A stretch of 64,000 bases of DNA from an uncultured delta proteobacterium (GCA_963737905.1 CAVTUQ010000014.1:121953-185952), one strand, 5' to 3'; shown: positions 11,112 to 38,308, numbered from the stretch's first letter. Numbers and translations are program-made. Notes: a model not told the origin generated them from the sequence alone.

Positions 11112-11816
11112 TTATGGCAGTGAATCCTTGTCAAAGGATTGAATTGGTCTGACGTTTGGTTCAATAATTTCGCAAAACTCTAAAGAATCGGGTTTTTTCA
11201 TACAGTGGGCACGCTTAATAAAATAAGTGTAGTGATCTGCTAGCTGGATTCCCCATGCCTCTTTAGAGTCTGCAAATAAAATCGGTTCTATCAAGTGATT
11301 GAATTTAGCCTTTGTTTGCATAACCTTGGTCTTACGATACAACCGCAAGGAATCTTTAAACATCGCTTCTCTTTGTGATTTGTCGGCAATTATAGTTCCG
11401 ACTTCACCAGGGGCGCTGCCGCAAAACCAAGTTTCTATTCCCGTTAGACACATAACCAATGCTAGATCTTCCGGTTTTATACCGAGGTCTGGATAAAGAC
11501 TGTTAAAGAACCCGCGTTCCACAAAAGCTGCGTATATTGGTAGTTTGTGGCGAGCAATCAGCCCTAATACTTCCTTTTGAAGCGATACGCGGTTTTCTCT
11601 GCCCCATCGCTGAAAAGCATCTGTCCCCCAAAACAAGTCACGGGCCTTCAACTCTGTGTCTTCTGAAAGCTCGGGAAAATCTTTTCTCACGTCTAAGAGA
11701 TCGGCTTCAAAACTCTTCCACTGTTCATCGCCGTTAATAACCACTCCAGCAACCACAGTGAAGGGTTCCTGATTTGGATCCCCAACGCCGCTCTCGTCGA
11801 TATAAACAAGGCGCAT
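11112..11816 (-). CDS. DUF3800-domain protein (predicted RNase H-like nuclease)
   Basis: MRLVYIDESG start, ELKA, IIADK, DSKEAWGIQLAD: the DESG...QLAD signature of DUF3800. Confidence 0.85.
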   Translation of the reverse strand: MRLVYIDESGVGDPNQEPFTVVAGVVINGDEQWKSFEADLLDVRKDFPELSEDTELKARDLFWGTDAFQRWGRENRVSLQKEVLGLIARHKLPIYAAFVERGFFNSLYPDLGIKPEDLALVMCLTGIETWFCGSAPGEVGTIIADKSQREAMFKDSLRLYRKTKVMQTKAKFNHLIEPILFADSKEAWGIQLADHYTYFIKRAHCMKKPDSLEFCEIIEPNVRPIQSFDKDSLP

Positions 11817-11874
11817 TATCTTTTGCGCATGTGTTAGGTTCGCAGTTCTAACCTGCTCGGTCCAATCATACATT

Positions 11875-11902
11875 TGTATACCCCTTTCGGCGTATCCGTC
11901 AA
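11875..11902 (-). promoter_or_regulatory. Putative sigma-70 promoter of the DUF3800 gene
   Basis: Minus strand TTGACG-N16-TATACA. Confidence 0.4.
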
Positions 11903-12004
11903 ATAAAACGGGCGTCCCAGTTCGGCAACGGCGCGTCGGGATCGATGTGATAACTATTCGCTATACATTGGTGGTGGCTTCCCAAATCAAGATTTCAGGG
12001 ATAG

Positions 12005-12130
12005 TCATTGCGGGGTAGGATTTAGAAGCCTTTGATACGTCGCCCTCTCTTCTGAAATCTGCTGCATAAACTCTTCTCGCGTAATCAGCCCCTTCTCGAT
12101 CAACAGCTTCGCCAGTGCATCCGTCTGAGA
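12005..12130 (-). pseudogene. 5'-truncated fragment of a small helical protein (QTDALAKLLIEKGLITREEFMQQISEERATYQRLLNP)
   Basis: Manual translation. A shorter homologous DNA piece occurs at ~4706-4746. Confidence 0.55.
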
Positions 12131-12145
12131 GTGTGGGCGGAAGTG

Positions 12146-12778
12146 TTAGTTTGTCGTTTCGGGTCCTCGACAGGCTTTGACAAACGCAGTTCCAAGAGGG
12201 GTAAGTCTGATGTTCCTAAAAAGGGTCAAATCGGGTCGCCAAAAATTAGTGAACGGCAAGTCTATAAGAGCAAGGCGCTCTCCAAGATTCATACATATAA
12301 CGGGAAGTTCGTTTTCCGGTAGGTTGGCTTCTAGGACCAGGTTGTGCTCAGAGTCGGGACTTTCCTGTTCCCAAACATATAAGGTGTCCAGTAGTCGAGC
12401 CTCCGGTGGCGTTATTTCTGCCAAAACTTTTGGAAATATCGGATGTACAGGTGTGCCAGCCGCTGCCGTTGCTAATAGCCCTGCCCATTTTGTGGCTAAA
12501 TCACCGTCGTTTTCCAAGGATGCGTATTGGACGATTGGAACCAGAAGAGTCAGTTCAACAGTTGTTGGCGCAATTTTCTTTTCTGAAAGGCGACGCTGGA
12601 CTTCAGTTATTAACCGCTCAATATTTTGAGAACGTAATAAATTTATGCGGTCCGCAAGTTTTTCACCGTAAGCGTCTGCAACCGGACCAAGTAAACGAAG
12701 GAATAGTTCACGAGCTTCACGCGTGAGTCGTTCAATGGATTCTGCAATTTTGCCTAAGCCAATTAAATCATCAGCCAT
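12146..12778 (-). CDS. Abi-alpha / DUF4393-like protein
   Basis: LLVPIVQYASLENDGDLATKWAGLLATAA...VHPIFPKVLAEITPPEARLL...LTPLGTAFVKAC pattern typical of DUF4393/Abi_alpha. Confidence 0.75.
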   Translation of the reverse strand: MADDLIGLGKIAESIERLTREARELFLRLLGPVADAYGEKLADRINLLRSQNIERLITEVQRRLSEKKIAPTTVELTLLVPIVQYASLENDGDLATKWAGLLATAAAGTPVHPIFPKVLAEITPPEARLLDTLYVWEQESPDSEHNLVLEANLPENELPVICMNLGERLALIDLPFTNFWRPDLTLFRNIRLTPLGTAFVKACRGPETTN

Positions 12779-12956
12779 TTCGCGCTCTCGCGTCATCCTA
12801 GAAATGCCTGAGCGATGAATAAGATGCTGCACCTATAACGCCACGAGAGGCTGCTAGTCAAGATTGCAGTAATAATAGCTCGTTTCATCGAATGGTTGGC
12901 GTCGCCAAAAGCTTCTCGTCATCATCTTTGACTTTCTATAATAAAATGCCGACTGA

Positions 12957-16531: not shown

Positions 16532-17729
16532 TTACTCCCTAGCAAGTTCACGCCACTTAACTACTGCTGGCTCAATAATTCTCTTGTCAAGATTGTCAGT
16601 GTTCTTCATCTTGATACGCAAACGTAGGCAGAACCCATGGGAATGTTGTCAAGTTTTCCGGGAGACTAACGAATTCTCTCTCTCCGGCGAGCACTAATGG
16701 CTGAACGGGTAGCGAAGGAAACCCTGGCACGATGTTGTGGAGTTCAGCTCGAACTTCGGTAGCATCAGTGACGTCGGCCACCACAAACTTAGCAAGGCCC
16801 GCGAGTATTTTTACTGTCTCGGTCACGTCCCGGTTTCGAGGGATCGTGAAGTCAAAGACAATCGGCACTAAATCCTTTCCTCGAAGCGCCTTGCGGATAG
16901 CGTCTAGCACCTTTTTTCGTTCATGAGTGAATCGACCAAGTATCAGAACGACTTTAGAGGTCACTGTGTCTATCACTTCACGGATCTTCTTATTGTTAAG
17001 CAGCAGATAAATAAACTGCGCTACCTCGAGGTTATCTGCAGTTATTTCGGCAGCACCGGGAGGAGAAATAATTAGATTCGACTGAATGGCTCCCTCTAAG
17101 TTCACTTCCCACGCTGAAACGCCATAAACCAAACAATCCGAAAGATTCGCTTTCTCAAAATTAGCTCGAACAATTCTTGTCCCAGTAAGGTTCGCGCCTG
17201 TGAGATCGGCGCCGCAGAAGATTGCTCCATCGAGATCTGCCTCGCTAAGATTGGTCCCATGAAGGGTTGCTCCGGTGAGATTCGCATCGCGGAGGTTGGA
17301 TCCGCTTAGATCCAGCCCGCTGAGGTTTATCTCCCAAGTTCTGCCCCGCGAAAATTAGTGTCGCCGAAGCGTGCGTTCGAAAGATTAGCCCCTGTAAGAA
17401 TCGCGTCGCTGAGATTCGTTCCGTGGAGATCGGTCCCTCCCCAGATTGGCGCGTACGAGTCTTGCTTTTTCTAAAGTTGCGCCCCGGAGTTTCGCATCAC
17501 CAAAGTCTGCCTCGTCCAACTCCGAACTGCTAAGGTCTGCTCCAGTTAAGTCCGCACTATTCAGTTTTGCGCCCCGAAGGTCTACACCATGAAGCCTAGC
17601 CGTAACAAGATATTGCCCGCTCAGATCTGGTCTCTCCCCCCGCTCGCGGGCCGCGGCGACTCGTTTAGTAACAGAATCCTTTAGTTGGTCATTCTTCCAG
17701 GGATGTGGCAGCATCTCATGTATTTCCAT
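16532..17729 (-). pseudogene. Pentapeptide-repeat protein with C-terminal TIR-like alpha/beta domain, frameshifted
   Basis: A(D/N)LxG pentapeptides; LEVAQFIYLLLNN..KVVLILGRF..FDF..ADVTD..VRAEL; the terminal segment NLDKRIIEPA..RE* lies in another frame, ending at 16532. Confidence 0.75.
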
Positions 17730-18045
17730 CCTGTCAATTACCTCTCTGGTTTTGGAGTGTAGGACTCGTCTATCGTTTCACCGAGACCACGATCGCAAAC
17801 CTAGTTACTGGGTACTACTCAAATACCACAGTCAAACTCAGTTTACGCTACCACTTCCTAACCAAGGGAAAAGGGGAAAAAAGGGGACACCTTATTGAAG
17901 GCAGATCAACAGGCGTCTACCGTGAAAAATCGAGGTCTTTAGCTGAGACGTTGCTCCGCTTGTCGAACGCCATGCCTGGGGGAGAATAAATGGCACGCGA
18001 ACCTTTTCTTGACTAGGATGGAGCCGGTTGATATAGCGTCGTCCG

Positions 18046-18705
18046 ATGCCTTGAAGAGCACGCATCGCGCCGGGCGAAATAGTTTACCATGTCCCTAACC
18101 GGGCCAACGGACGAAACGAACTCTTTCATAAGTCGGAAGACTATTCTGCATTCGAGAGAATCATAATTGCAACCATGCATCGCTCTCCCATTCGGCTGCT
18201 GGCATACTGCTTGATGCCCAATCACTGGCACATGGTTCTCTGGCCGAGGAAAGATGGTGAGATGACCGAGTTTCTTCGCTGGTTGACAACCACGCACAGC
18301 CAACGTCTGCATGCACATCGACACACGAGCGGTTATGGGCACATTTATCAGGGCCGATTTAAAAGTTTTCCCATTGAACAAGATGAGTCTTTGCTAGTTG
18401 TGCTACGCTACGTTGAACGTAATGCGTTGCGGGCAAAGCTCGTCGAGCGTGCGCAGGATTGGCGCTGGTGCAGTTTATGGCGCCGCATTAATGGGGATCA
18501 ACAATTCGTGCTGAGTAGGGGGCCCGTTGAGACTCCAACGGACTGGATCGATGGGTGAATGGACCGCAGACCGCAGCCGAACTCGAGGCATTGCGGAAAT
18601 CCGGGAATCATGAACGCCATACGGCTCGGAAAACTGGAGGATGAGGATCGCCAACATGTGCATTTGGGAATTTACTCTTCACTCCGCGGTAGACCTAGAA
18701 AAGAC
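18046..18705 (+). mobile_element. REP-associated tyrosine transposase (RAYT, Y1/HUH) pseudogene
   Basis: MP*RARIAPGEIVYHV start with a stop and frameshift; AYCLMPNHWH (HUH), HIYQGRFKSFPI, YVERNALRA, WRWCSL, terminal RGRPRK. Confidence 0.9.
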
Positions 18706-18725
18706 CCCTTTACTCTACTCTTGAT

Positions 18726-19079
18726 CTACAGACCAGTAAACTGGTCGTATTTTTTTGGATGCTTTGCCATAAAAAAGCGTAGCTTCTGAGCTAACTCTAA
18801 TCTTTCCTTTTCAGTTAGCGCCTGTCCAGATTCACTTGTCATGTTAAGAGGCACACCAGAATCGCGCCACTGCCACTTTTCCTTTGGATCAATTCGCAAT
18901 AGACCGCTAGTCGTATCGTATAGCAGGCCGATGTCAGCGACTTTGCCTATCTTTCCGCCAGTTTGGTAACGGAGAATATCGAATTGGGCGAGGTAGCTTA
19001 TCCGAGCACCATCCTGAAATAGGTAAGGTGAGTTGAAATAAATCGCATTAAGCGCGGCTCGAAGTAATTTAAGCATCAT
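18726..19079 (-). CDS. Candidate immunity protein for the RHS toxin (Imm74-like)
   Basis: 117-aa ORF starting 7 bp after the toxin stop; C-terminal W...LTEKERLELAQKL is reminiscent of Imm74. Confidence 0.65.
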   Translation of the reverse strand: MMLKLLRAALNAIYFNSPYLFQDGARISYLAQFDILRYQTGGKIGKVADIGLLYDTTSGLLRIDPKEKWQWRDSGVPLNMTSESGQALTEKERLELAQKLRFFMAKHPKKYDQFTGL

Positions 19080-19085
19080 ATTGTC

Positions 19086-20906
19086 CTATTTTATAGGAAT
19101 ATTACGCCAAAGAAGAATTGGTTTTTCAATGTTTGTCCATACCCAACCAGCATTGCGTATCACTGCTTGTACTGATCCGGTTGCGTTTCCTGCAAAGGTT
19201 GCCGAAGCTACCGTCCAAATTCCTTGCCAAACGATATCCGGAAGTCGGACCTGATAACCAAATTGTAGAGTTTCGATCACATGCCCGATTGGGGTTGCCC
19301 CAATGGTCGTCCCAAGCTCTTGAGCGGCAGTTCGGGCGCCTTCTTTAAAACCCGACCAAGGGACGGAATTTGCCCCGGCATTTAAGCCCGCACTCCAGCC
19401 GATTCCAATGCCCAAAGCTAAACCCGTGTGTTTTCCTGCTGCATACGCTGTACTACATTGATCCACTACATCGCTCAGACCAATCGACGCCACCAATTCT
19501 TGCCGCAAGAGCTGTGAGATTGGAATCGCGCTATGCCCCAGAACTCTTTGCGTGAAGTTCCCCAAGTTCATGAAACCGCCCGACAAAAAGTCGCCTGTTC
19601 CGGCAGAGAAGTTAGAAACGTTGTCTAACCAATCAAGTCCATAAGGATCGACTCGCCCGACTGGATTATTACCAACGAAACCATAGAAATTGAGGCCGGC
19701 CGCAAAACCATTTGGATCCTCACTGCTAAACCGCCCGGTCGCAGGATCATAGAATCTGGCGCGGAAGTAAAGTAATCCGGTTTCTGAGTCCAACTCCCTT
19801 GCCGTAAACGTATATGGCTGAACAAAGTTTGCATCCAGTTGCGACTCGATCTTTCCAAACGAAGAATAGCTGTAGCGCTGCACCACGGTTCCGCTTTGGT
19901 TCGTTATTTCCGTGATCGAGCTTAGGCCATCGGCATGGTAGAAGAACGGCTGAGCGTTCTTCTCCATGATCAGCGGTTCGTCGATCCCAGGGCCGTGGGT
20001 GTAGCGAGCGACGATACTGTTGGCACCGTTCAGTTCGAGCAGGATGTCTTCGTTGTCGTACACGTATCGCGTCGTTGTTGTGCCCGCATCGATTACTTCC
20101 TTTTCTACCCTCCTCCCTAAACCATCGTACTTGTAGTTCACCGTCTTGGTTGCAGTCATTACCCTAGCTAGCTTATTTTCGGCATCATACTCGTAAGTGG
20201 TGACCGCTCCGCCGATTTTCGCGGTCTTTCGGGTAGTATTCCCATTGTTGTCGTACTGGTAGGTGAAGTTAGCGTCTTCCAGAAGTTGATTCGCTTGATT
20301 GAACGTCGAAGCACCATTCTGGTTAGAGTTCCCCCTGTTGCCCACGGCATCGTAGGTATAGTTTTCCAACGGATTTGACGGCAGCGGGTTAATCGCTTGG
20401 ACCAGGCGATTTAAGGCATCGTACGTGTAGTTTGCCGTCCCATTGTTGTCAGCCTTGGAATTCCGATTCCCCACTTTGTCGTAGGTGTATGTAAAAGAAT
20501 TGATCGTTGTGGCTCCGAGTTGATGAGCGATATTTAAAAGCTGCGACGCCGCGTCGTAGGTGTAGTTCGTCACTGTGCCGTTGGCATGGGTCATCGAAGT
20601 TCTTCGCCCAAGCGCATCGTAGGTAAAAGTCGTCGTCTGGCCCTTGTTGTTGGTCATCGATGTCAGCCGGTTCAAAGCGTCGTAGCTGTAGGTTGTCAGC
20701 CCGGTCGGATCGATCATCGAAGTGCGATTGCCGTTTAAGTCATACGTATAGATGGGATCCAAATCGTCCAATTTTGGATTGGGGAATAGGGATGAAGAAG
20801 AGGTGCTGCATGGCGAGATAGAGGTTCGCATGAATTTCGGATTTCGAGTCTCGCTGCCCAAGTTCGAAGGCGGGAGCAACCATTCTTGGTTGCCGGCGGT
20901 CGCCAA
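19086..20906 (-). CDS. C-terminal part of a giant RHS protein: second half of the YD shell, RHS-associated core and toxin tip
   Basis: YTYDLNGNRTSM.. YD repeats; YFRARFYDPATGRFSSEDP..NPVGRVDPYGL core; 182-aa tip at 19086-19634. Confidence 0.92.
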   Translation of the reverse strand: MATAGNQEWLLPPSNLGSETRNPKFMRTSISPCSTSSSSLFPNPKLDDLDPIYTYDLNGNRTSMIDPTGLTTYSYDALNRLTSMTNNKGQTTTFTYDALGRRTSMTHANGTVTNYTYDAASQLLNIAHQLGATTINSFTYTYDKVGNRNSKADNNGTANYTYDALNRLVQAINPLPSNPLENYTYDAVGNRGNSNQNGASTFNQANQLLEDANFTYQYDNNGNTTRKTAKIGGAVTTYEYDAENKLARVMTATKTVNYKYDGLGRRVEKEVIDAGTTTTRYVYDNEDILLELNGANSIVARYTHGPGIDEPLIMEKNAQPFFYHADGLSSITEITNQSGTVVQRYSYSSFGKIESQLDANFVQPYTFTARELDSETGLLYFRARFYDPATGRFSSEDPNGFAAGLNFYGFVGNNPVGRVDPYGLDWLDNVSNFSAGTGDFLSGGFMNLGNFTQRVLGHSAIPISQLLRQELVASIGLSDVVDQCSTAYAAGKHTGLALGIGIGWSAGLNAGANSVPWSGFKEGARTAAQELGTTIGATPIGHVIETLQFGYQVRLPDIVWQGIWTVASATFAGNATGSVQAVIRNAGWVWTNIEKPILLWRNIPIK

Positions 20907-23900
20907 TGGACGTGAGACCTGTCGATGAGTCGGGTCGCCTCCGCCTTCATTACCGGCGGCTGCTCAACGGTCGGCGCCAACAGGGCGAGCTGTTGTTCCG
21001 TATGGATAGTGCCGCTCTGGCCGTTGGGGGCACCTGATCCTATGCCACCGGTGGCAGTGACTTGGGTGACAAGACTAAACGCCGTGACATCCGCGTAATA
21101 TAGGGCTATCCTCCCACCACCTCCTCCACCACCACCCGACAACGTAGCCGCGCTCCCGTTCGCGCTCATCGACCCTGTCCCAGAAAGAGTACCAACATCA
21201 ATGCGTATTCCCCCACCACTCCCTCCAGCAGCGGAGCCGCCACCTGCAGGCGGGCCGCCATTGGCCCAGATGGCTCCATTTAGCACAAGCGTCTGCGCTA
21301 CAATGCGAATCAACCCGCCGCCATTGCCTGCATCGGCGCCATTAAAACCACCGCCACCACTGCCGACATCGTTGGGATTTCTCAAATCCCCATAAACCGG
21401 ATTTGAAGCTCCTCCACCTAGACCTCCATAACTTCCTCCGGCGCCTGAGCCGCTGCCCAACTGAAATCCCTGCGTCATTCCAGTCGTGTTGCTCGGGTTC
21501 CCCGGTTGTCCTCCGCCCAAAAACCCTCGACCGGTTACGTCCATACGACTCGTCGCATCGATGGTGAGAGAGTTGACATTGAGAAGTAGTTTTCGAAGAA
21601 CACTTGCAGTAGTCGGCGGATGGGTGACAACGCTGTTATCGGCAAGCTGAAGGGACGTGGAAGCATTGACCTCAATCGACTCCAAAGTGCTTCTGGTGGT
21701 TAATTGAATCGTGGACGCAAACAATTGGTTCAAGGCGAGTAAACGGCTATCAGTTACAATCTGAATATCATTCACAACATTCAATAAACTATCGACCTTG
21801 GCCTTTGCACCGCGCCGAATCTTTACGGCCGTAAAATTCAATGAAGCGGCCGGAATTGCAAAAACCGGCGTCGTTTCATTAGGGGCAATCAGATTATTGT
21901 TATCGACTATGAGTTCTCCCCTCTCTCTTCCCGAACCCTGTAAATAGACCGTACCGGCACCGCCATTGGTTGAACCCCCGCCAAACGTCGCGCCAAAAGC
22001 ACTGACATTCCCAAAATTAAAAGTCGTTGCATTTTGATAATACACAGCGACTCTGCCTCCACCTCCCCCACCTCCTCCCGACGATAAAGCCGCACTACCG
22101 TTTACGCTAATCGACCCGGTTCCAGAGAGCGTCCCGACATCAATCCGTATCCCGCCTCCACTGCCTCCAGCCCCAGCACCACTAGCCGGACCTCCGTTGG
22201 CTCGAATCGCTCCATCGAGTGCAATTGTCTGCGCTACAATGCGAACCAATCCGCCACCATTGCCTGCTCGGCCACCACTGAAGCTACCGCCTCCACTACC
22301 GATATCGTTGGGATTCTTAAAATCTCCATAAGCTGGATTCGTGTTCCCACCGCCCAGACCTCCGTAACTCGCGCCATTCCCTGAACCGTTAACGGCCTGA
22401 AAGCCAAGCGTCATGCCATTAGTCGGGCTCGGGTTCCCTGGCTGCCCTCCACCCAAAAACCCCCGACCTGTCACGTCTATGCGACTCGTCGTGTCGATAG
22501 CGAGAGAATTAACAGTGAAATCCAATTTGAAAGCCGCCGCAGCGGTCGTAGGTTCATGCGTGATGACAGCATTGTTGGTGACCGCGACTGAAGCAGCGGT
22601 GAGTGGTTTTGTAAGAGTCAGTGTCGAACTCCCGGAGACTTCTAGATTAGCAGCAAGATTGATTTGATCGTCGATCTTGACATTCGTAGTACGCCGAACC
22701 CGTAGATTACTGAGCGCCAGTAACCCGGAAGCTTGTGGAAGAATCGGTGTGGCTACCGCAACAAGATTATTATTGTCGACTATGAGTTCTCCGTTCTCTC
22801 TTCCCGAACCCTGTAAATAGACCGTCCCGGCACCGCCATTGGTTGAACCCCCGCCAAACGTCGCGCCAAAAGCGCTGACATTCCCAAAATTAAAAGTCGT
22901 TGCATTTTGATAATACACAGCAACTCTGCCCCCTCCTCCCCCACCTCCTCCCGACGATAAAGCCGCACTACCGTTTACGCTCATCGACCCGGTTCCAGAG
23001 AGCGTCCCGACATCAATCCGTATCCCGCCTCCGCTCCCCCCAGCCCCAGCACCATTAGCCGGACCTCCGTTGGCCCGAATCGCTCCATCGAGTGCGATCG
23101 TCTGCGCCACGATACGAACCTGGCCGCCCCCGTTACCTCCCTGATTTCCACTGAAGGCGCCACCGCCACTACCCACGTCATTCGGATTCCTGAAATCCCC
23201 GTAGAGCGAGTTCGTATTCCCGTTGAAAACACCGCCCAGACCTCCGTAACTCGCGCCATTCCCTGAACCGTTAACGGCTTGAAAGCCAAGCGTCATGCCA
23301 TTAGTCGGACTCGGGTTGCCTGGCTGACCTCCACCCAGAAATCCCCGACCCGTCACGTCTATGCGACTGGTGGCATCAATCTGGAGGGTCCCGGTTACTA
23401 GGATATCTAGTTTCTTTACGGTGCTCGATGTGGTCCCGCTCTGCGTAAGGATGGCTCCGTTGAGTAACACGAGATTGGCAAATGTATGAGATCCGTCAAT
23501 CGTCAGGGTTTTGCCGCTAACCTGGATTGTTCTTCCATCGAATTGTCTATTGTTCGCATCGATCAAAGTATCGGTGTTTATGGGGACGACAGTTTCTGCA
23601 AGCGTCGCTTCCGTGCCTGAAGTCGAAGAGAGTAGCCGGTTTGCCAGATCATATTGGTTCACGACTGCAACTACGGGGTTGGTCACTGTTGTAAGATTTC
23701 CAACGGAGTCATAGCTAAACATCGTAACCTGCGCGCCGACCTCGCTGGATGTGGCCGGACGCGTCTTGCTGATTAAACGATTTAGCGCGTCGTAGTCGAG
23801 AGTCACCGTCTCTCCATTGCGGTTGGTGGTAGAAGTGAGATTCCCGTTGGTATCGTAAACGAAGCTCTCCGACAGACCCAAAGGATTTGTCGCGGAGGTG

Positions 23901-26900
23901 AGGCGATCCAAACCGTCGTAGGCGAAAGTGGTCGTTTGATTTTTCGCGTCTCTGACCTGTGTAAGGTTTCCTTTTGGGTCGTAGCTGTACTGGGTAATCT
24001 TTAGAGCCGCGTCCAAGACGGAGATAAGGCGGTTCATCGGATCATAGACAAACTCCGTAGCTCTGTTCTCCCCATCTGTGGACTTAAGGACATTGCCGGC
24101 ATTGTCGTAAGCCAAGGCTGTAACGTCGCCCTTGGGATTGGTCGTGGTTACGAGATTACCCTTGCCGTCATAAGTAAAACTTGTGGTGGTTTGAATCGGA
24201 GTTCCAAACGCAGATGTAATAGAGGTTACAAGGCCGCGGATATCGTATGACACCTGGGTCCGGTTCCCCAAGGCGTCGATGATCTCGACCGGGTTACCTT
24301 TCTCGTCATAGTTGATCGTCGTCGTGTTCCCCTTGGGATCACGAATGGTTCTCACTTGGTTGAAGCTCGGCTCATAAGTAAACGTCGTCGTTGCGCCGAG
24401 CGGATCTGTCGAACTCAGCAGATTGCCCTTGGCATCGTAGGTCATCGTTGTAATTGCGCCATTGGAACGAGTGATCCGGGTCGGATTACCGTTTGCGTCG
24501 CGCTGGGTTGCAGTCGTGTGCCCTAGAGCGTCGGTCTGGGCGACGATTTGGCCCAAGGAGTCCAGAGTGAATCGACTCGGATTTCCCTTCCCATCGGTGA
24601 GCGTAGCAGCGGCATTCTGGCTCAGGACGATGGGCGCGGGATGGGTGGGAGTGCCCTGCCCGTTTGCGATATCGGCGAGCCCACGGATTTTACTCGAGGT
24701 TAAAGAGCGTGTCTCGCCTGTGGGACGGGTCGATTGGGAAAACCTACCGGCAAAATCGTATAGGTAGGTGGTGCTGTTTCCCCTTTCGTCGGTGCCCTGG
24801 ATAACATGCCCTTTATCGTCGTAGCCATAGCTCACGAAACTGCCGTCCGGATGGGTTGTGCGGATGAGATACCCGGAGGAGTCATACTGAAATTGGGTCT
24901 GTCTGCCTGATGGATCCGTAATTCGCTGAAGCTTCGCTCCGGCATAGACCAATGCAGTGACAAGTCCGGCCGGATCGGTAACTGCGGTCAGCCTATTGCC
25001 CGCATCATAGCTATAGTTGGTCGTGTTACCGCTGCGATCGACCACAGAAGTTTGATGACCTTGGGAATTGAAATTAGCTCTAGTTCCGTCTTTGAACGTC
25101 CGCGTGAACGTGCCATCGGGATTCTTGATCAACATGGAGAAGTCTCGCGGCGGCGAGGTAAATGTGTCCGGCCCGCCGGAGAAGAATAGAGCCGTGCCGT
25201 CTCCGCTCGTCAGCAACAGAGTGCCGTCGGCCTGTGGATGAAGCTGCTGCAGGCCTGTAACGGCCCAGCCTGCACCCATGGGGCTGCTCTTTCGATTCAC
25301 GACGATTACATTACCGCTTGCAATCCCACCGATAGACGAATTCAGATAGTTGCTAAAAACCGTCGCCTGGTAAGGATAGCGGCCGGACACCAGGTTGGAT
25401 GCATCAAACTGGATGGAAAGACGAGAGATAGAATCGGCATCTTCAGGAAGGGAACGGGCGTCGGTGAAGACTTCGCCGCCTTGCTGGACGCCCCCGACGA
25501 CCAGCCGTGTCGAATAGCTATTCGGAACCGCAGCGCGGACATTTAGCGTCGTATCCAATGTTATGATCGGCCTGGGATCAGCAGTTATGGAGCTGTAGGT
25601 GAGCGAGAGGCTCCGGTTTTGGCTGAGCGAGCGATAAGAAGGTAAATTGTGGGTAATGTAGAGACTTCCCTCTTCTAGATTAGCCTCGGAACCTACCGCG
25701 GTGCGGCAAGATCCGCAAAAATTGCTTCCTTGATTCGGTGTTGGTACCGGACTGCTCGCCAATGGAAAATGCCAGGCGCTGGCCGTGACTCCTCCCTCGA
25801 CGGTGATGATACTCTGGCCATCGGCAGAGATCGCCGTCTTGCCCACAATATTAAAAGTCCCTGTGTCAGGGCTCAAAGACCAAAGGTTGAGCTCGTTTCC
25901 TGGCAGCATGCCGTCCGCATTGGGGAAAGTCAGACGGGCTGGTGGATTGAACCTGATACCGGCGGGCTGGATTGTGATCGCCATTCCGGGCCTTAACTCC
26001 TCCGGCCTCGACTCCGGGCGACCGTAGTCAGGCACCGGATTGACCGACAGCTTGCCATTGAACGGCGTACCGTCGGCATTCCGCGCGGAGCCAGCTAGTA
26101 TAGTTAGCTCAACTCCGGGAAGATTCGAGTTGGTCACTACGGTATTGAAGTTGGAACTCACCTGGACTTCGGATTCGACATCGACGTCAGGAAGAGTAAT
26201 AGGAGAACCGAGTTCGTTTAGAACACCATCAATCAAGTTCACTGACACGGCAAGAATCGCGAACACACCAAGATGGGCTTCTCTCCCATTGACAATGAGT
26301 TGCTGCTTGCCCGAAGGAATCCCGGTAATAGTGAAGTATCCGTTGTTGGCGGAAAACCCTGTCTGCCCAGTGGCTTTTAGGGTTACCTTGACGTTGCCCA
26401 GGGGCGATTGGTTCAGGTTGTAAACTTTGCCTCTGACCGCGGTCGTCCCGCCAGGCGGAGGATTCGGGACGGTAATGGTAATTGTCTCCGAGGTGGAGAT
26501 TTGGCCGCTCAAGGCAGTGAAAGTGAGCTGATAGCTACCGACCTGCAGCATATCCGGCGTGAACGTGAAAACACCCGTTGCAGAGGTGAAATTTGCGTGA
26601 TTCGGCAGCGGCAGTGGAGACACGAACAAACTCACCGGACCGCCGCTCGAATTCGTGGCACTGACAGTGAACTTGAGCGTTTGGCCGAGGTTGACAGTTT
26701 TATTGCCGATGGGATTAAGAACCAGGCCGCCCACCGCGATCGTGGCTGTTGTCTGGGAGACGGCGGTAGCACCGAGAGCGTCAGTAACAGTGAGAGTGAC
26801 CCCGAAGGTTCCGGCCGTCCCGTAAACGTGGGTCGGTGTAGCACCTGTGGCCGCACCGCCGTCGTCAAAGTTCCAATTGAAAGTGACGCCATCTCCATCG

Positions 26901-28429
26901 GGGTCGGTGCCGGAACCAGAGAATTGAATCGGCACTCCGACATTGCCGACGTAAGGACCGCCGGCATTAGCTGTAGGCGCGTGGTTGACGTGAATGACGG
27001 TGATGGTGACCGTAGACGGAGTACTGTATAGCTGTCCGTCATTCACGACGAGCTGAAAAACATATTCCCCGAGACTGAGTGGCGTAAATGTCGGCCTTAC
27101 AGTAGTCGCTCCGCTGAGGTTCGCGTTTCCTCCAGGCTGAGCAATGATCGTCCATTGATAGGCTAACGTCGCCCCCTCAGGATCGCTGCTTTGACTCCCG
27201 TCCAGGGTAACGAGCTGACCGCCAAATACAGTCCGATTCGCACCGGCATGGGCAAGCGGTGGCGCATTGGGAAACTCGAAGGCGCCGGCATCGAAGGACG
27301 CCACCCGATCGGCGTTGCCGTCCGCCGGGCGGATGCCTTCGATTGCGAAGTCCGCCTCAAAGATCGGATTGAACGTCGGGTTGAACCCGAGTGTCCGCGG
27401 GTCGATCCCGACATCGATAGCAAAAGAATTTACCCTCAGACTGAAATCATCGTCCTCGCTGTTGGGCAAATTGTCCGGGCCGTTTAGGTTTACAAAAAGA
27501 TTCGACGCCACGTTGCAGCCTGGAAGCGCAGCCACGCCCACACCCTCGGTTCCCTGTGGTGTGAAATTTCCGGAATCCGTGGTGTCCAGAACCGGTCCGT
27601 TGATCTCACCAAGCGTGTTGCCACAGACAAGATTGTTGCGTAATTTGATACCCGCAGGTTGAGGGCTATTGGAACTCTCTCTTTTAACGCCAAATCTTCC
27701 GCCGGTTGATCCGGACGCCGTACCGTTTTTATTGATGATATTGTTGGCGATCGTAACGACGTGATTTCTCGTCACGTCGATACCGTTCCACTGGTTGCCG
27801 TAAATAGTGTCGTTGATAATGTAATGTGGCCCACCCTCGGCGTCCTCAAAGGCAATACCGTTGCGGCCGTTGCTATAGATTAAATTGTTCACGATCATCG
27901 TGCCCGGATTACCCCGCGCGATGGTTATACCGCCGTTGCACGAGCTGCTGCCGTTGCCAAAAATGCGGTTGAGCTCGATGTGGATGTCTTGATTGGCATT
28001 GTTACCGCCCATCATAGAGATCGCTTGCGCACCGGTTCCGGTAATCGTCAAGCCGCGTAGGGTTACGAATTTCGATTGTTTGAATCGGATCGCCCATTTC
28101 TCGGTACATTGCGGACCCGGCGCGCCGGTTAGGACAACTTGTCCGGGCGGAAGCGCTGGATCCGCTTCAATGACAATACGATCAAACTCGGTTGCATTGG
28201 GAAATTTATTTTTCTCGATCGCGACTTGTTCAGGATAGGTGCCGGTTTGGATGCGGACGATATCGCCGGGCTGTGCGACATCAACGGCGTCTTGAATCGT
28301 GGTGTAACAGGGAGCCTGTCCACCGCAGGCAGGATCCGTGCGACTGACGAAGATGATGCTCTGTTGCGACTCTACCGGCCGCGGACAGAACAATATGAAG
28401 AAGGTCACAAAGCCTAGGAGTTTTCTCAC
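20735..28429 (-). CDS. N-terminal part of a giant secreted teneurin-like RHS/YD protein (beta-helix, 2 PKD, Ig-like, carboxypeptidase-regulatory-like, plug, YD repeats, 3 Gly-rich repeats); probably one ~3,100-aa gene with 19086-20906
   Basis: GTG start with RBS GGAGG; Sec-like signal peptide; TIQDAVD..PGD.V.I..GTY.E beta-helix ending DAGAFE; NAPPLAHAG and WNFDDG PKD motifs; YD repeats ~25100-23630; overlapping frames at 20735-20906. Confidence 0.9.
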   Translation of the reverse strand: MRKLLGFVTFFILFCPRPVESQQSIIFVSRTDPACGGQAPCYTTIQDAVDVAQPGDIVRIQTGTYPEQVAIEKNKFPNATEFDRIVIEADPALPPGQVVLTGAPGPQCTEKWAIRFKQSKFVTLRGLTITGTGAQAISMMGGNNANQDIHIELNRIFGNGSSSCNGGITIARGNPGTMIVNNLIYSNGRNGIAFEDAEGGPHYIINDTIYGNQWNGIDVTRNHVVTIANNIINKNGTASGSTGGRFGVKRESSNSPQPAGIKLRNNLVCGNTLGEINGPVLDTTDSGNFTPQGTEGVGVAALPGCNVASNLFVNLNGPDNLPNSEDDDFSLRVNSFAIDVGIDPRTLGFNPTFNPIFEADFAIEGIRPADGNADRVASFDAGAFEFPNAPPLAHAGANRTVFGGQLVTLDGSQSSDPEGATLAYQWTIIAQPGGNANLSGATTVRPTFTPLSLGEYVFQLVVNDGQLYSTPSTVTITVIHVNHAPTANAGGPYVGNVGVPIQFSGSGTDPDGDGVTFNWNFDDGGAATGATPTHVYGTAGTFGVTLTVTDALGATAVSQTTATIAVGGLVLNPIGNKTVNLGQTLKFTVSATNSSGGPVSLFVSPLPLPNHANFTSATGVFTFTPDMLQVGSYQLTFTALSGQISTSETITITVPNPPPGGTTAVRGKVYNLNQSPLGNVKVTLKATGQTGFSANNGYFTITGIPSGKQQLIVNGREAHLGVFAILAVSVNLIDGVLNELGSPITLPDVDVESEVQVSSNFNTVVTNSNLPGVELTILAGSARNADGTPFNGKLSVNPVPDYGRPESRPEELRPGMAITIQPAGIRFNPPARLTFPNADGMLPGNELNLWSLSPDTGTFNIVGKTAISADGQSIITVEGGVTASAWHFPLASSPVPTPNQGSNFCGSCRTAVGSEANLEEGSLYITHNLPSYRSLSQNRSLSLTYSSITADPRPIITLDTTLNVRAAVPNSYSTRLVVGGVQQGGEVFTDARSLPEDADSISRLSIQFDASNLVSGRYPYQATVFSNYLNSSIGGIASGNVIVVNRKSSPMGAGWAVTGLQQLHPQADGTLLLTSGDGTALFFSGGPDTFTSPPRDFSMLIKNPDGTFTRTFKDGTRANFNSQGHQTSVVDRSGNTTNYSYDAGNRLTAVTDPAGLVTALVYAGAKLQRITDPSGRQTQFQYDSSGYLIRTTHPDGSFVSYGYDDKGHVIQGTDERGNSTTYLYDFAGRFSQSTRPTGETRSLTSSKIRGLADIANGQGTPTHPAPIVLSQNAAATLTDGKGNPSRFTLDSLGQIVAQTDALGHTTATQRDANGNPTRITRSNGAITTMTYDAKGNLLSSTDPLGATTTFTYEPSFNQVRTIRDPKGNTTTINYDEKGNPVEIIDALGNRTQVSYDIRGLVTSITSAFGTPIQTTTSFTYDGKGNLVTTTNPKGDVTALAYDNAGNVLKSTDGENRATEFVYDPMNRLISVLDAALKITQYSYDPKGNLTQVRDAKNQTTTFAYDGLDRLTSATNPLGLSESFVYDTNGNLTSTTNRNGETVTLDYDALNRLISKTRPATSSEVGAQVTMFSYDSVGNLTTVTNPVVAVVNQYDLANRLLSSTSGTEATLAETVVPINTDTLIDANNRQFDGRTIQVSGKTLTIDGSHTFANLVLLNGAILTQSGTTSSTVKKLDILVTGTLQIDATSRIDVTGRGFLGGGQPGNPSPTNGMTLGFQAVNGSGNGASYGGLGGVFNGNTNSLYGDFRNPNDVGSGGGAFSGNQGGNGGGQVRIVAQTIALDGAIRANGGPANGAGAGGSGGGIRIDVGTLSGTGSMSVNGSAALSSGGGGGGGGRVAVYYQNATTFNFGNVSAFGATFGGGSTNGGAGTVYLQGSGRENGELIVDNNNLVAVATPILPQASGLLALSNLRVRRTTNVKIDDQINLAANLEVSGSSTLTLTKPLTAASVAVTNNAVITHEPTTAAAAFKLDFTVNSLAIDTTSRIDVTGRGFLGGGQPGNPSPTNGMTLGFQAVNGSGNGASYGGLGGGNTNPAYGDFKNPNDIGSGGGSFSGGRAGNGGGLVRIVAQTIALDGAIRANGGPASGAGAGGSGGGIRIDVGTLSGTGSISVNGSAALSSGGGGGGGGRVAVYYQNATTFNFGNVSAFGATFGGGSTNGGAGTVYLQGSGRERGELIVDNNNLIAPNETTPVFAIPAASLNFTAVKIRRGAKAKVDSLLNVVNDIQIVTDSRLLALNQLFASTIQLTTRSTLESIEVNASTSLQLADNSVVTHPPTTASVLRKLLLNVNSLTIDATSRMDVTGRGFLGGGQPGNPSNTTGMTQGFQLGSGSGAGGSYGGLGGGASNPVYGDLRNPNDVGSGGGGFNGADAGNGGGLIRIVAQTLVLNGAIWANGGPPAGGGSAAGGSGGGIRIDVGTLSGTGSMSANGSAATLSGGGGGGGGRIALYYADVTAFSLVTQVTATGGIGSGAPNGQSGTIHTEQQLALLAPTVEQPPVMKAEATRLIDRSHVHWRPPATKNGCSRLRTWAARLEIRNSCEPLSRHAAPLLHPYSPIQNWTIWIPSIRMT
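21000..23380 (-). repeat. Three tandem Gly-rich repeat units (~0.87-0.94 kb period) inside the RHS gene
   Basis: Each unit reads R(I/M)DVTGRGFLGGGQPGNP..SYGGLGG..YGD..NPND.GSGGG..GGSGGGIRIDVGTLSGTGS..GGGGGGGR. 21903-22230 and 22776-23103 are nearly identical in DNA. Confidence 0.95.
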
Positions 28430-32907: not shown

Positions 32908-33097
32908 AGTTTCCTCCTTGGCAGCGGGCTCGCTGATTGAAATTACTAAATAGGGGTCTCGCGCAAAAATTGTCAACCCTTACGCAATACAAGGCAGCCG
33001 CCGCCGTGACCGGCACTTGAATCCGAGACGAGCGACAACTATATTCGGTCAACTCCTTTTCCGTCAGTTCGATATTTGCACTCTTAGGAAATTCACG

Positions 33098-33815
33098 TTG
33101 CACCTTACCGTTCGCCAACTCGCGAAAGCCTATGGACTACTGTGGGCGCTTAGGGATGTCAGTTTTGACTTGCCGGCCGGAGAAATCGTAGCTTTGCTAG
33201 GGCCTAACGGGGCGGGCAAGACCTCGCTGCTGAAGCTTCTCGCCGGGCTGATTTCTCCGACCACGGGCGAGATCGTTCTCGACGGCTCGAACTTTAGCCG
33301 CACGGCCACCGTTCAACGGTCAGCTATAGGATTCTTGGCTCCCGGCGAGCATCTTTATGAAAACTTGACGGTGCGTGAAAATCTCGTTTTCTTCACTTCC
33401 CTTTACAAAAAGACCCAAGCGATCGCTCATATCGATTTCACTCTGGAGGAGGTCGGCCTGAAGCACCGTTCCGAAGAATACGTCGCCGCACTTTCCAGTG
33501 GGATGAAATGCCGTCTTTCTATCGCTAAATGGAAACTCCTTCGAGCCCGGACTGTTGCTGCTCGATGAGCCCTACGGCGTCTTGGACGGTAGCGGCATCG
33601 ATCTGTTGGAGAGCTTCTTGAGAGCGCAGCGTCATAAAGGAAGTGTCACTATTATCGCCTCGCATCATGTGGCCCGGGTGCTGAACCTATGTACGCGCGC
33701 AGTGATCCTTCACCAAGGAAGATTAACCTTTAACGAGGCCCGCCAGCAGCCCTGGGATAGCTTTGCGCATGCCTTTGGAGAATTCCTGCCCCACGGGGAG
33801 TCATGGACTTCCTAA
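33098..33815 (+). CDS. ccmA: Heme exporter ATP-binding subunit (frameshift near 33550)
   Basis: GPNGAGKT Walker A, LSSGM signature; LLLDEP Walker B in the next frame; first gene of the ccm operon. Confidence 0.88.
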
Positions 33816-34480
33816 GCCAAATTTTCCTGCTGCTCAAAAAGGATCTCCTTTTGGAGATGCGCCGGCGGGAAAGTCTCTTGACTATGTTTTTTTTCGGCAC
33901 GCTGCTGCTATTCGTTTTTCATTTTTCTTTCGATCTCGTGCCCGAACGGGTGGCGGAGATGGCGCCGGCTCTGCTCTGGCTGGCGTTTCTCTTCACCGGC
34001 ACATTGGGACTCGGGCAACTTTTCGAGGGCGAGCGTGACAACCATTGCCTCGAGGCCCTGTTGCTTTCGCCCATGGATCGCGGCGCACTTTTTCTCGCCA
34101 AAACGGGCTTCAATTTTATCCTGATGGTCCTCGTGGAAATCGTCGTCATTCCTCTGTTCTGGATTCTCTTCAACCTTCGATCCTGGGATGTTATTCCTTT
34201 GCTGTTTCTCGTCACTTTGCTAGGAACCGTCGGTTTCTGCGTCTTAGGCACCCTGTTATCGGCGGTCACTCTAAAGTCGAGAGCCCGGGAGCTTTTGCTG
34301 CCCTTGGTGTTGTTCCCGCTTATGATCCCCGTGATCTTGGGGACGATTCGCTGCATGGAGGCCGTCCTTCGCGCCGGCGAACTTGGCGATGCGTTACCCT
34401 GGTTGCGTCTTTTAGTGGGATTTGATGTGATATTTCTGACAGCGGGAGTCTTGATTTTTGATTGGGTTATCGAAGTCTAA
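33803..34480 (+). CDS. ccmB: Heme exporter permease CcmB
   Basis: KDLLLEMR, FEGERDNHCLEALLLSP, LLLPLVLFPLMIP. Confidence 0.93.
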   Translation: MDFLSQIFLLLKKDLLLEMRRRESLLTMFFFGTLLLFVFHFSFDLVPERVAEMAPALLWLAFLFTGTLGLGQLFEGERDNHCLEALLLSPMDRGALFLAKTGFNFILMVLVEIVVIPLFWILFNLRSWDVIPLLFLVTLLGTVGFCVLGTLLSAVTLKSRARELLLPLVLFPLMIPVILGTIRCMEAVLRAGELGDALPWLRLLVGFDVIFLTAGVLIFDWVIEV

Positions 34481-34482
34481 CT

Positions 34483-35187
34483 ATGGCTGAAATCTCGAAC
34501 ACCGCGCGCAACAGCAAAGGTTATCTCGGTGCGTTGGCTTTGATCAGTGTTCTATTCGGGCTCTACTGGGGGCTATTTCGGGCGCCGCCCGACGCCTACC
34601 AGGGCGAAGTGCAGCGCATCATGTATCTCCATATCCCAAGCATTCTGACAGCCTATCTGTCCTTCTTCCTGGTTTTCATCGGAAGTTGCCTCTATTTATG
34701 GAAAAGAGAAAAAAGGGATGATATTTTGGCTTATTCCGCCGCGGAGATCGGCGTTTTGTTCACTTTACTGACGATCATCGAGGGTTCGATTTGGGGTAAA
34801 CCCACCTGGGGGGTTTGGTGGACATGGGATGCACGATTGACCCTGACGGCGATCTTGCTTTTGATTTTTGCCGGATATCTTATGTTGCGATCACTCACCG
34901 AAGATGAAAATCGCGCGGCCTCCGCTGCCGCCGTGTTGGGGATTATCGGTTTCCTCGACATTCCCTTGATCCACATGTCCGTCTACTGGTGGCGCACCTT
35001 GCATCAGCCACCGTCCATCCTGCGCCCGGACAAGGCCCCGTGGGATAACGTTCATCCAGCGATGCTGACCGCCCTTGCGATCAACTTCGTCGGCTTTATG
35101 CTCCTGTACTTTTACTTGCTCTCTCAGCGTTTCCGGCTTGGAGAAACAAGGGAAAAAATCAAGGCGCGCTTGCTCAGGGACAACTGA
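34483..35187 (+). CDS. ccmC: Heme exporter CcmC
   Basis: RIMYLHIP, WGKPTWGVWWTWDARLT (WWD domain), WWRTLHQ. Confidence 0.96.
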   Translation: MAEISNTARNSKGYLGALALISVLFGLYWGLFRAPPDAYQGEVQRIMYLHIPSILTAYLSFFLVFIGSCLYLWKREKRDDILAYSAAEIGVLFTLLTIIEGSIWGKPTWGVWWTWDARLTLTAILLLIFAGYLMLRSLTEDENRAASAAAVLGIIGFLDIPLIHMSVYWWRTLHQPPSILRPDKAPWDNVHPAMLTALAINFVGFMLLYFYLLSQRFRLGETREKIKARLLRDN

Positions 35188-35342
35188 TGGGCGCGTGGGG
35201 ATTTGTCTTTTTAGCTTATGGGATTGTTTGGGGTGCGATCTTGATTTACTGGCTTGCGCTCAAGCGCCGGCTTCGCCGCGCGGAGACGGAACTGGCGCAA
35301 TTGGGGAACCCTCAGGAGTCACAAAAAAATGCGCAAACGTAG
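35187..35342 (+). CDS. ccmD: Heme exporter CcmD
   Basis: 51-aa ORF (not in the track) MGAWGFVFLAYGIVWGAILIYWLALKRRLRR, coupled by overlapping stop/start between ccmC and ccmE. Confidence 0.85.
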   Translation: MGAWGFVFLAYGIVWGAILIYWLALKRRLRRAETELAQLGNPQESQKNAQT

Positions 35343-37733: not shown

Positions 37734-37734
37734 A

Positions 37735-38301: not shown

Positions 38302-38308
38302 TTATTTC

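Follow-up and report, generated by a model that had tools for sequence, protein, structure and literature searches.

Cages built from the YD repeats of rearrangement hotspot (RHS) proteins are universal toxin containers, which serve type VI secretion system (T6SS) effectors, Tc toxins, and teneurins. Bacterial teneurin-like proteins (TLPs) are defined, in the text of the study that describes them, by an FN-plug, an NHL propeller, and a YD shell in this order; the same text treats as an open question how cages that lack a delivery machine reach and enter their target (PMC13018210, 2026). In TcB, a β-propeller encoded within the cocoon sequence (residues 376-691) seals the cage and attaches it to TcA, as stated in the available text of the corresponding report (10.1101/590430). 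Here we describe a 64,000-nucleotide stretch of DNA from an uncultured delta proteobacterium (GCA_963737905.1 CAVTUQ010000014.1:121953-185952), referred to in full as the window, in which the minus-strand region 18726-28429 encodes an RHS/YD-repeat polymorphic toxin of ~3,100 residues followed by a small downstream gene. The toxin is read from two overlapping open reading frames (ORFs) in different frames (Table 1). Its YD shell is interrupted by three glycine-rich units, which are predicted to be β-helices and occupy the same shell position in a conserved family of relatives.

The triple insert in the YD shell

The chain departs from the shell once a YD repeat has been completed (NQYDLANRLLSS; NQYDLANRLLSSTS) and re-enters it at the start of the next one (IYTYDLNGNR; DPIYTYDLNGNR). 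The insert comprises ~885 residues in three units of ~290 residues each, and a linker of ~80 residues follows the third unit. Residues ~1605-2490 of the first ORF are covered by no Pfam or NCBIfam family. The cores of the units contain 22-34% glycine per 100-residue bin, in contrast to 6-12% in the YD part. DNA identity is 92-95% between units 1 and 2 and 73-75% between unit 3 and either of them; the protein identities among the units are 80, 61, and 60%, unit 3 being ~60% identical to the others. Tandem Repeats Finder reported no repeat (period >500), and a DNA repeat search did detect the units. A hidden Markov model (HMM) of the unit finds exactly three matches in the first ORF, at residues 1605-1899, 1896-2182, and 2192-2480. 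A sequence-only reading of the window had proposed that the shell switches abruptly to three glycine-rich units, after which YD repeats resume, and the measurements agree with it.

Homologs were collected with residues 1100-1700 as the query, and the best 120 listed were scanned with the unit profile. They include many single-frame proteins of 3,050-3,900 residues that span the insert junction at 57-85% identity. Among the relatives, P0011 (3,116 residues) is complete, and the L007/P0010 type (3,057 residues) is truncated where its contig ends. The unit is present in 47 of the 120, all 57-85% identical to the query and always with the unit between the same two shell motifs, and is absent from the remaining 73, all of which are at most 36% identical. 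Most unit-bearing homologs (35 of 47) contain three units, and P0030 yielded four partial matches. Two units are present in six homologs: in P0063 the shell restarts after the second unit, just before the end of its own sequence, and the remaining five terminate inside their last unit or shortly past it. One unit is present in five, of which P0049 and P0059 continue through the C-terminal shell and three terminate inside the unit or shortly past it. The copy numbers, which the sequence-only reading had proposed to tabulate, are mostly one to three. The family occurs in nine species-level genomes (one genome per species) of Binatia, "delta proteobacterium" metagenome-assembled genomes (MAGs), and Pyrinomonadaceae. 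The linker motifs PVMKAE and NLYLAM are conserved in the unit-bearing relatives. A single open frame runs through the insert in relatives L001, L006, L007, and L009; in two of them, L001 and L007, this frame extends far enough to include the RHS core motif. Because the same junction and single frames recur in independent assemblies, the insert is real rather than a product of misassembly, and an assembly chimera is excluded. The triple insert is the ancestral state of the clade.

Two further features of the insert family were observed. The one-unit relative P0049 contains a second, unrelated insert of ~100 residues within the C-terminal YD part, so the shell wall seems to tolerate insertion at several sites. 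In many cases a unit resembles its neighbours in the same protein more closely than the equivalent unit of another protein (P0045, P0014, P0019); for example, units 2 and 3 of P0045 are 91% identical to each other and 53-63% identical to those of the window, and across the examples the range between relatives is 53-65%. This higher similarity within proteins suggests concerted evolution or gene conversion among the units.

Predicted fold and distribution of the unit

The AlphaFold2 prediction of unit 2 (residues 1885-2185), made with an alignment of 100 units, is nearly all β, with a predicted local distance difference test score (pLDDT) of 91.6 and a predicted template modelling score (pTM) of 0.90. 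The unit is confidently predicted to be a right-handed parallel β-helix of the secreted-adhesin type. The unit model was compared with 48,161 chains using VIA-align, in which Z scores up to 8 are common for repeats, so that weight was given to the top rows and the fold class only. The best match was EtpA (8vba; Z 13.2, 203 aligned residues, root-mean-square deviation (rmsd) 3.9, 22% identity), followed by HMW1 (2odl; Z 11.6) and the two-partner secretion (TPS) domain of EtpA (8cpk; Z 11.4). Candida Awp adhesins, HxuA, tapirin, FHA, IcsA, UpaB, and VacA ranked lower. The top-ranked structures are all right-handed β-helices of surface or secreted adhesins, and the adhesin-like character that the sequence-only reading had ascribed to the insert is supported by these matches of the predicted unit structure. 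When the same model was compared with PDB structures using Foldseek, no match reached E <=0.001, and only weak β-helix rows appeared.

The predicted unit shares the right-handed parallel β-helix with EtpA, HMW1, FHA, HxuA, and autotransporter passengers; with EtpA and HMW1 the comparison reaches Z 10-13 over 160-203 aligned residues at 20-22% identity. The TPS adhesins differ, since the units do not match the TPS secretion domain and the helix described here is internal to another fold. No haemagglutination-activity or TPS family matched the 100 aligned units (three from the window and 97 of the 108 found in loci) or any part of the toxin. No POTRA, ShlB-type, or TpsB neighbour was found near the toxin in the window or in the scanned loci of relatives.

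The unit is a very common extracellular domain without a Pfam or NCBIfam model. No Pfam family matched any of the 100 units, and an Atlas search with the unit returned unnamed clusters only. At E <=0.001 the unit matches 6,186 protein clusters, 1,289 of them at E <=1e-30. The unit-bearing proteins are as long as ~7,000 residues, and a single one may contain as many as 12 matched stretches. The unit, ~250-300 residues long in the window and in loci L010-L032, is common in giant proteins of Verrucomicrobiota, Planctomycetota, Kiritimatiellia, and Lentisphaerae. In the 13 proteins scanned out of 150 listed, the unit is accompanied by Ig-like, TSP3, CarboxypepD_reg, LamG, and DUF2341 domains. In L029, L031, and L032 (Kiritimatiellia, Baltobacteraceae), the units lie within the first ~930 residues and the YD repeats beyond residue 2,100. 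Therefore, the module is portable, and it occurs inside the shell only in the family of the window toxin.

A possible single shell from two halves

The two parts of the shell contain 555 and 372 residues, ~930 in total, compared with the 909 positions of the TEN_YD-shell model. In best local alignments, the halves fall on consecutive stretches of RhsA (7q97; 516-790, then 902-1289), Tse15 (687-958, then 990-1213), and the S. bongori protein 8qjc (717-1000, then 1183-1421), which are three of the seven cocoons examined. We infer that both YD parts contribute to a single cage enclosing the cleaved tip, because the cut falls between repeats, the halves together have about the size of the 909-position model, and their best alignments are consecutive.

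Several results weigh against a single shell. On RhsP, 8qja, Tse5, and 9ifo, the halves map with gaps of 115-160 residues or overlap. BLAST of the halves against 12 insert-free RHS proteins returned several overlapping registers, so that the insertion point is ambiguous. The shell was modelled on residues 1545-2744 of the one-unit relative P0059 (1,200 residues, 29 relatives aligned), and the model is poor (pLDDT 68, pTM 0.34): pLDDT is below 30 in the linker (716-817) and below 50 in the RHS core (1065-1200), and the superposition on solved Rhs cages gives a template modelling score of 0.3 and an rmsd >30 Å. Structure predictions and searches were run on the separate halves or on natural relatives with an intact gene.

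The sequence-only reading had stated that accessory domains usually lie N-terminal to the shell. The TcB propeller, which is placed inside the cocoon sequence in the available text of 10.1101/590430, shows this generalization to be overstated, and a domain inserted in a cage therefore has a precedent. If the cage wall accepts very large insertions, as the window toxin indicates, this would be useful for engineering cocoons as protein carriers.

Toxin tip and candidate immunity protein

The family carries a variable C-terminal tip on a conserved scaffold: the 21 scorable tips fall into 11 clusters, and that of the window toxin belongs to a cluster of eight members. A profile of five tips (window, P0091, P0274, P0015, and P0019) matched Tac1 (9OUF, E 1.4e-4) and the entry 9RO8, named "ADP-ribosylcyclase toxin" (E 1.2e-3), which we take to be the entry of the Pantoea PAAR-ADP-ribosyl cyclase (ARC) toxin; Aplysia cyclases followed at E ~2. 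When the single window tip was compared with the PDB using phmmer, the match was marginal (9RO8, E 0.21), and the Pfam family Rib_hydrolayse matched one of the five tips (E 0.014). According to the available text of its description, Tac1 acts as an ADP-ribosyl cyclase and exhausts NAD(P)+ as a toxin, its residue E573 is essential, and a change of E516 favoured the release of cyclic ADP-ribose (PMC12356396). Toxins of this type occur in polymorphic toxins with varied delivery modules, as far as the texts of two reports describe (PMC12356396; PMC12605009).

The C-terminal half of the window tip aligns with Tac1 and 9RO8, with which it shares the essential glutamate and a tryptophan. The glutamate of the motif NIEKPIL is invariant in the five tips and, in our reading of the alignment, corresponds to the glutamate of "iWeNiElPrL", which is E573 in Tac1 and E226 in CD38; the tryptophan is likewise conserved between the tip and the ARC toxins. 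The tip is likely, but not firmly, related to NAD(P)+-degrading toxins of the ADP-ribosyl cyclase (CD38-fold) type, as judged by sequence. The assignment is not firm because the match covers only the last ~90 residues. Other points also weigh against it: the match is weak (E 1e-4 to 1e-3), and the second glutamate, present in Tac1 (E516; E146 in CD38, "TLE"), is replaced by glycine in the window tip (TTIGAT). Glycine is also found at this position in P0091, asparagine in P0274, and glutamate in P0015 and P0019 (LLEDT). An Atlas search with the tip yielded a best score of 0.87 and no lead to a family or to ARC toxins. A search for tip homologs among longer proteins of up to 3,030 residues found two, and P0015 and P0019 fall outside that range.

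The tip of P0274, a protein of 2,959 residues with NHL and teneurin-type domains on record, is 55% identical to that of the window toxin. This type of tip is common to the window family and to true teneurin-like proteins.

The 117-residue downstream protein has 21 homologs with 54-96% identity and no match in Pfam or NCBIfam, and hence none to Imm74. In L005, a homolog that is 41% identical to it (P0003-like) starts nine bases after a 56%-identical tip, and L006 shows this arrangement in part. The same longest contig, of 2,684,146 bases, is listed for P0287, a homolog of the 117-residue protein, and for P0091, the tip of which is 82% identical to that of the window; the two genes are probably on the same contig. 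The 117-residue gene travels with the tip type of the window, and its product is likely an immunity protein, as suggested by its position and co-occurrence. The predicted complex of the tip with the 117-residue protein had a score of 0.00, which speaks neither for nor against binding. The intact RHS core, the DPYGL motif, the toxin tip, and the candidate immunity gene of the sequence-only reading were all recovered.

Genome context and delivery

The window belongs to a metagenome bin with a total of 6.7 Mb on 46 contigs, for which completeness is 87.5% and contamination 6.7%. This genome contains one RHS core, and secretins are present. TssC and PAAR had no match in this 87.5%-complete genome. 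TcA_TcB_BD was not matched in it either, and the same search matched no control genome. The absence of T6SS and TcA genes, which had been noted for the window, held in the genome as far as it is complete, within the limits of the TcA search. No conserved partner gene was found among the 49 of 83 window ORFs that were scanned (up to 44320), and no conserved neighbour was found in the loci of eight relatives (70 of 75 ORFs scanned). We conclude that the gene probably encodes a stand-alone secreted or surface toxin; the incompleteness and contamination of the genome weigh against this conclusion.

Organization of the locus

The features of the toxin gene are listed in Table 1. Domains were assigned by Pfam and NCBIfam profile searches of the window ORFs, and the signal peptide and the plug-like region were judged by eye. 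The signal peptides of the relatives have a similar pattern, also judged by eye, of K/R, a hydrophobic run, AxA-like residues, and QQ. The carboxypeptidase-regulatory-like family, which scores below its cut-off in the window toxin, is also on record for its relatives, and the plug-like region matches no family model. All motifs quoted in the sequence-only reading, which had described a giant Sec-type RHS toxin with β-helix, PKD/Ig, CarboxypepD_reg, and plug-like regions, were found where they had been placed: GSLYITHNL at residue 921, SPMGAGW at 1049, and YDLANRLLSSTS at 1593 of the first ORF. The YD motifs of the first ORF extend from residue 1141 to 1593, and its RHS repeats score 265.8 bits with PF05593 (10 stretches) and 225 bits with TIGR01643. 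In the second ORF, YTYDLNGNR is at residue 53, from which the RHS repeats run (PF05593, 109.9 bits; TIGR01643, 89 bits), and PVGRVDPYGL ends at residue 424, after which 182 residues follow.

Table 1 Features of the toxin locus in the window.
Feature	Position	Strand	Size or basis
First ORF	20735..28429	-	2564 aa
Second ORF	19086..20906	-	606 aa
Third ORF	18726..19079	-	117 aa
GTG start and signal peptide of Sec type (~21 residues; VES precedes QQ)	28367..28429	-	By-eye reading
Right-handed β-helix domain PF13229, residues 114-271	27617..28090	-	30.9 bits, cut-off 25.9
PKD/Ig-like domains (K319L-like PKD, PKD_4, He_PIG), residues 388-654	26468..27268	-	Pfam
CarboxypepD_reg (transthyretin-like), residues 665-715	26285..26437	-	25 bits, below Pfam cut-off 32.3
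Plug-like region (GSLYITHNLPSYRSL ... SPMGAGW), residues ~915-1055	25265..25687	-	Motif positions; kept in relatives
N-terminal YD-shell part, residues ~1056-1604, ending YDLANRLLSSTS	23618..25264	-	RHS repeats; matches solved Rhs cores
Glycine-rich predicted β-helix unit 1, residues 1605-1899	22733..23617	-	DNA repeat search, unit HMM
Glycine-rich predicted β-helix unit 2, residues ~1900-2190	21860..22732	-	DNA repeat search, unit HMM; AlphaFold2 fold of residues 1885-2185
Glycine-rich predicted β-helix unit 3, residues ~2191-2480	20990..21859	-	DNA repeat search, unit HMM
Linker (PVMKAE ... NLYLAM ... DDLDP), two frame breaks near 20936 and 20805	20760..20989	-	Three-frame reading
C-terminal YD-shell part, second-ORF residues 50-346, starting DPIYTYDLNGNR	19869..20759	-	Matches solved Rhs cores
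RHS repeat-associated core, PVGRVDPYGL (autoproteolysis motif), second-ORF residues 347-424	19635..19868	-	TIGR03696, 79 bits, cut-off 32.5
Toxin tip, 182 residues and stop; C-terminal half putatively ADP-ribosyl-cyclase-like	19086..19634	-	Five-tip profile match
Candidate immunity gene, 117 residues, start 6 bases after toxin stop	18726..19079	-	21 homologs, no family

The toxin cassette adjoins mobile elements, and transposases are frequent next to the gene. In the window, an IS200-like Y1 transposase is located just downstream of the pair of toxin and putative immunity genes (18055-18555, +). An IS200-like transposase is likewise downstream in the relative L004 (16657-17622), and L001 has genes for a Mu-type transposase and IstB downstream (16750-19092). 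At 11115-12832 (-), a few kb beyond the 3' end of the toxin gene, are DUF3800 and Abi_alpha (abortive-infection-type) genes. Many ORFs in the surrounding stretch have no family match, and this part of the window may represent a variable or defence island.

Frame breaks in the linker

Across 20650-21100, the coding path of the window copy passes through three frames within the linker: PVMKAE is in that of the first ORF, PDSSTGLTS...KSEIHANLYLAM is in the third, and DDLDPIYTYD is in that of the second ORF. The third-frame stretch matches the linker of the closest relative, P0005. The sequence-only reading had called for joining two frames; the frames do differ, and the linker contains two breaks rather than one. 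The best sequencing runs share 0.33 of the sampled words, and the comparison used short Logan contigs of relatives. Contigs from runs X1 and X3 (soil metagenomes of one study) that are 95-99% alike have one letter fewer at both 20936 and 20805, and in them the three linker stretches share one frame. In a contig of another study, the linker has diverged.

Other genes are also broken. In an otherwise complete ccmABCEFGH-type operon (32954-39928, +), ccmA changes frame at ~33540-33570, past the signature motif of ABC proteins (LSSGMKCRLSIAK) and ahead of Walker B (LLLLDEP). An indel introduced by the assembly is the probable cause, which bears on other broken genes in the genome. A pentapeptide-repeat gene (16599-17777, -) is split into two ORFs, and its repeats run through two frame changes and in-frame stops. 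Elsewhere in the genome, a secretin match (contig C22, 34308-34780) contains internal stops (two TGA and one TAA). The toxin genes of relatives L002-L005 and L008 have scattered breaks, and L004 also has breaks in the neighbouring rmlD and ABC-2 genes. Because other genes are broken and near-identical contigs are one letter shorter, the two linker breaks are read as consensus indel errors of the assembly, with fair assurance. Two points weigh against this assignment: X1 and X3 belong to one study and represent relatives rather than the source reads, so real mutations are possible, and two breaks 131 bases apart in a gene of 9.7 kb are unevenly spread.

A lesser but sizeable probability attaches to the window copy being a true pseudogene, in which two real one-base changes leave a protein of 2,564 residues without the rest of the shell and the toxin. 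RHS loci are known to decay, neither of the frame changes at ~20936 and ~20805 is in a long homopolymer, relatives that are 95-99% alike have a continuous frame, and the IS200-like transposase is just downstream. Several points speak for assembly errors instead: one frame change in ccmA and two in the pentapeptide gene of the same window point to consensus indels at ~1 per 13 kb, the 9.7-kb gene contains no other stop or break, and scattered breaks are seen in the related MAGs L002-L005 and L008, in L004 also in rmlD and ABC-2.

Possible role of the insert

With moderate confidence, we explain the locus as a whole by a single gene for a Sec-exported RHS/YD-repeat polymorphic toxin of ~3,100 residues with a predicted triple β-helix in its shell sequence, a member of a conserved family of uncultured soil bacteria. 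The chain begins with a signal peptide, a pectate-lyase-type β-helix, PKD/Ig, transthyretin-like, and plug-like regions, and ~550 residues of YD shell. Three predicted β-helix units of ~290 residues, a linker of ~80-130 residues that is predicted to be disordered, and another ~300 residues of YD shell follow. The chain is completed by the RHS core, which contains the aspartyl autoproteolysis motif, and by a tip of ~180 residues, with the putative immunity gene 6 bases downstream. The insert may emerge from a hairpin turn that separates two complete YD repeats, and may project as a rigid arm, in which the three units placed end to end would measure ~15-20 nm by our own estimate. The arm would bind or span the surface of the target cell, and the toxin may kill by depleting NAD(P)+. 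The most likely role of the arm is a rigid adhesin-like reach. The proposals of the sequence-only reading that the module is grafted onto the side of one closed cage and that the toxin is self-delivering go further than the data. An arm of ~90 kDa within the cage sequence is a testable candidate for the missing targeting or delivery part of machine-less cages.

More tentatively, the toxin may exemplify a further mode of delivery by RHS cages, a possibility to which we give limited credence. A stand-alone Sec-exported cocoon with a β-helical arm of ~15-20 nm threaded through the cage wall would find and perhaps breach the target envelope without a T6SS, TcA, or cell-wall anchoring, and the length of the arm (one to three units) and the tip would be exchangeable modules.

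In the main rival reading, the insert is a gate or adaptor instead of an adhesin: like the TcB propeller, it would control the opening of the cage or dock it on a translocator. Alternatively, it would itself enter the target envelope, as has been proposed for the β-helical parts of contact-dependent inhibition toxins. A gating domain inside a cocoon has the precedent of TcB residues 376-691, according to the available text of 10.1101/590430; the insert and the linker motifs PVMKAE and NLYLAM occupy one shell position in all 47 unit-bearing relatives; and the other N-terminal binding-type domains could already provide adhesion. We consider such a role unlikely, because the fold matches adhesin and passenger β-helices rather than a propeller, and a copy number of one to three would be odd for a precise gate. 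The unit is also found N-terminal to the YD repeats in L029, L031, and L032, from other phyla, and in giant Ig/TSP3/LamG-rich surface proteins without a cage, which fits a general stalk module, and no conserved partner gene was found nearby.

It is very improbable that the gene is functionally split, so that two chains assemble into one cage as in TcB/TcC or the frame is changed by programmed frameshifting. The break is in a linker predicted to be disordered in a relative, ATG and TTG codons precede the YD restart in the second frame, and TcB/TcC shows that a two-chain cocoon is workable. A simple split would not need the two breaks that the third-frame NLYLAM reveals, the relatives have a single frame, no ribosome-binding site was seen before the candidate starts, and other window genes are broken too. 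Programmed frameshifting was dropped on account of the two breaks and the other broken genes. The erroneous fusion of a glycine-rich surface-protein gene into an RHS gene during assembly is scarcely credible, even though the source is a MAG with 6.7% contamination and units 1 and 2 are 92-95% identical repeats prone to mishandling by assemblers, since the same junctions recur in dozens of independent contigs, which come from several sources and from short-read as well as other assemblies, and the junction motifs are conserved at both sides.

Comparison with known RHS systems

The window toxin, which we read as a single Sec-exported chain, is an RHS/YD polymorphic toxin by its repeats, core motif, and polymorphic tip. 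The halves of its shell match the sequences of solved Rhs cocoons with E values down to 1e-46. It shares the YD shell, the PxxxxDPxGL core, the polymorphic tip, and the immunity gene, here a putative one, with the T6SS Rhs effectors (RhsA 7Q97, Tse15 8UY4, S. bongori 8QJC, RhsP, and Tse5). Those effectors have PAAR, VgrG, or prePAAR, whereas the window toxin has a Sec signal and long N-terminal binding-type domains; its shell is shorter (~930 residues) and contains the predicted β-helix insert of ~885 residues. With TpsA exoproteins, the toxin shares the β-helix fold only, as neither an N-terminal TPS domain nor a TpsB gene was found.

TcB-TcC (4O9X, 4IGL) resembles the window toxin in having a large folded domain within the cage sequence and the same aspartyl autoproteolysis core. 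The insert of TcB-TcC is a propeller, whereas that of the window toxin is a predicted triple β-helix in what is probably a single chain, and Pfam detected no SpvB or TcB mid domains in the window toxin.

The sequence-only reading had called the toxin teneurin-like and had pointed out that it lacks the NHL propeller of typical teneurins. The latter statement is confirmed, since Pfam detected no NHL family in the toxin at E <=0.01, and the ~90 residues that separate the plug motif from the first YD repeats are too few for a propeller of ~330 residues. With the TEN_YD-shell family (PF25023), the scores of 34.3 and 29.6 bits stay below the cut-off of 50, and the TLP structure 9IFO is matched with E 2e-21 and 4e-41. 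The toxin has no NHL propeller and therefore falls outside the three-domain definition of bacterial TLPs, as worded in the text of PMC13018210, so the label "teneurin-like" does not apply in the strict sense.

The main text of PMC13018210 describes no shell insert in TLPs. Nor is a β-helix or glycine-rich insert in an RHS shell described in the literature covered, which includes the main texts of 10.1101/2024.02.26.582050 and PMC13018210. The conserved layout with a triple insert is apparently undescribed.

The features shared with bacterial TLPs (9IFO), as given in the text of PMC13018210, are the Sec-type signal, variable N-terminal adhesion domains, and a transthyretin-like domain before a plug or, in the window toxin, a plug-like region. 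Both also have a YD shell that measures ~900 residues and polymorphic tips accompanied by immunity genes, putative ones in the window family, and both lack an obvious delivery machine, according to the same text (PMC13018210). By analogy, the window toxin appears to work most like the bacterial teneurin-like proteins.

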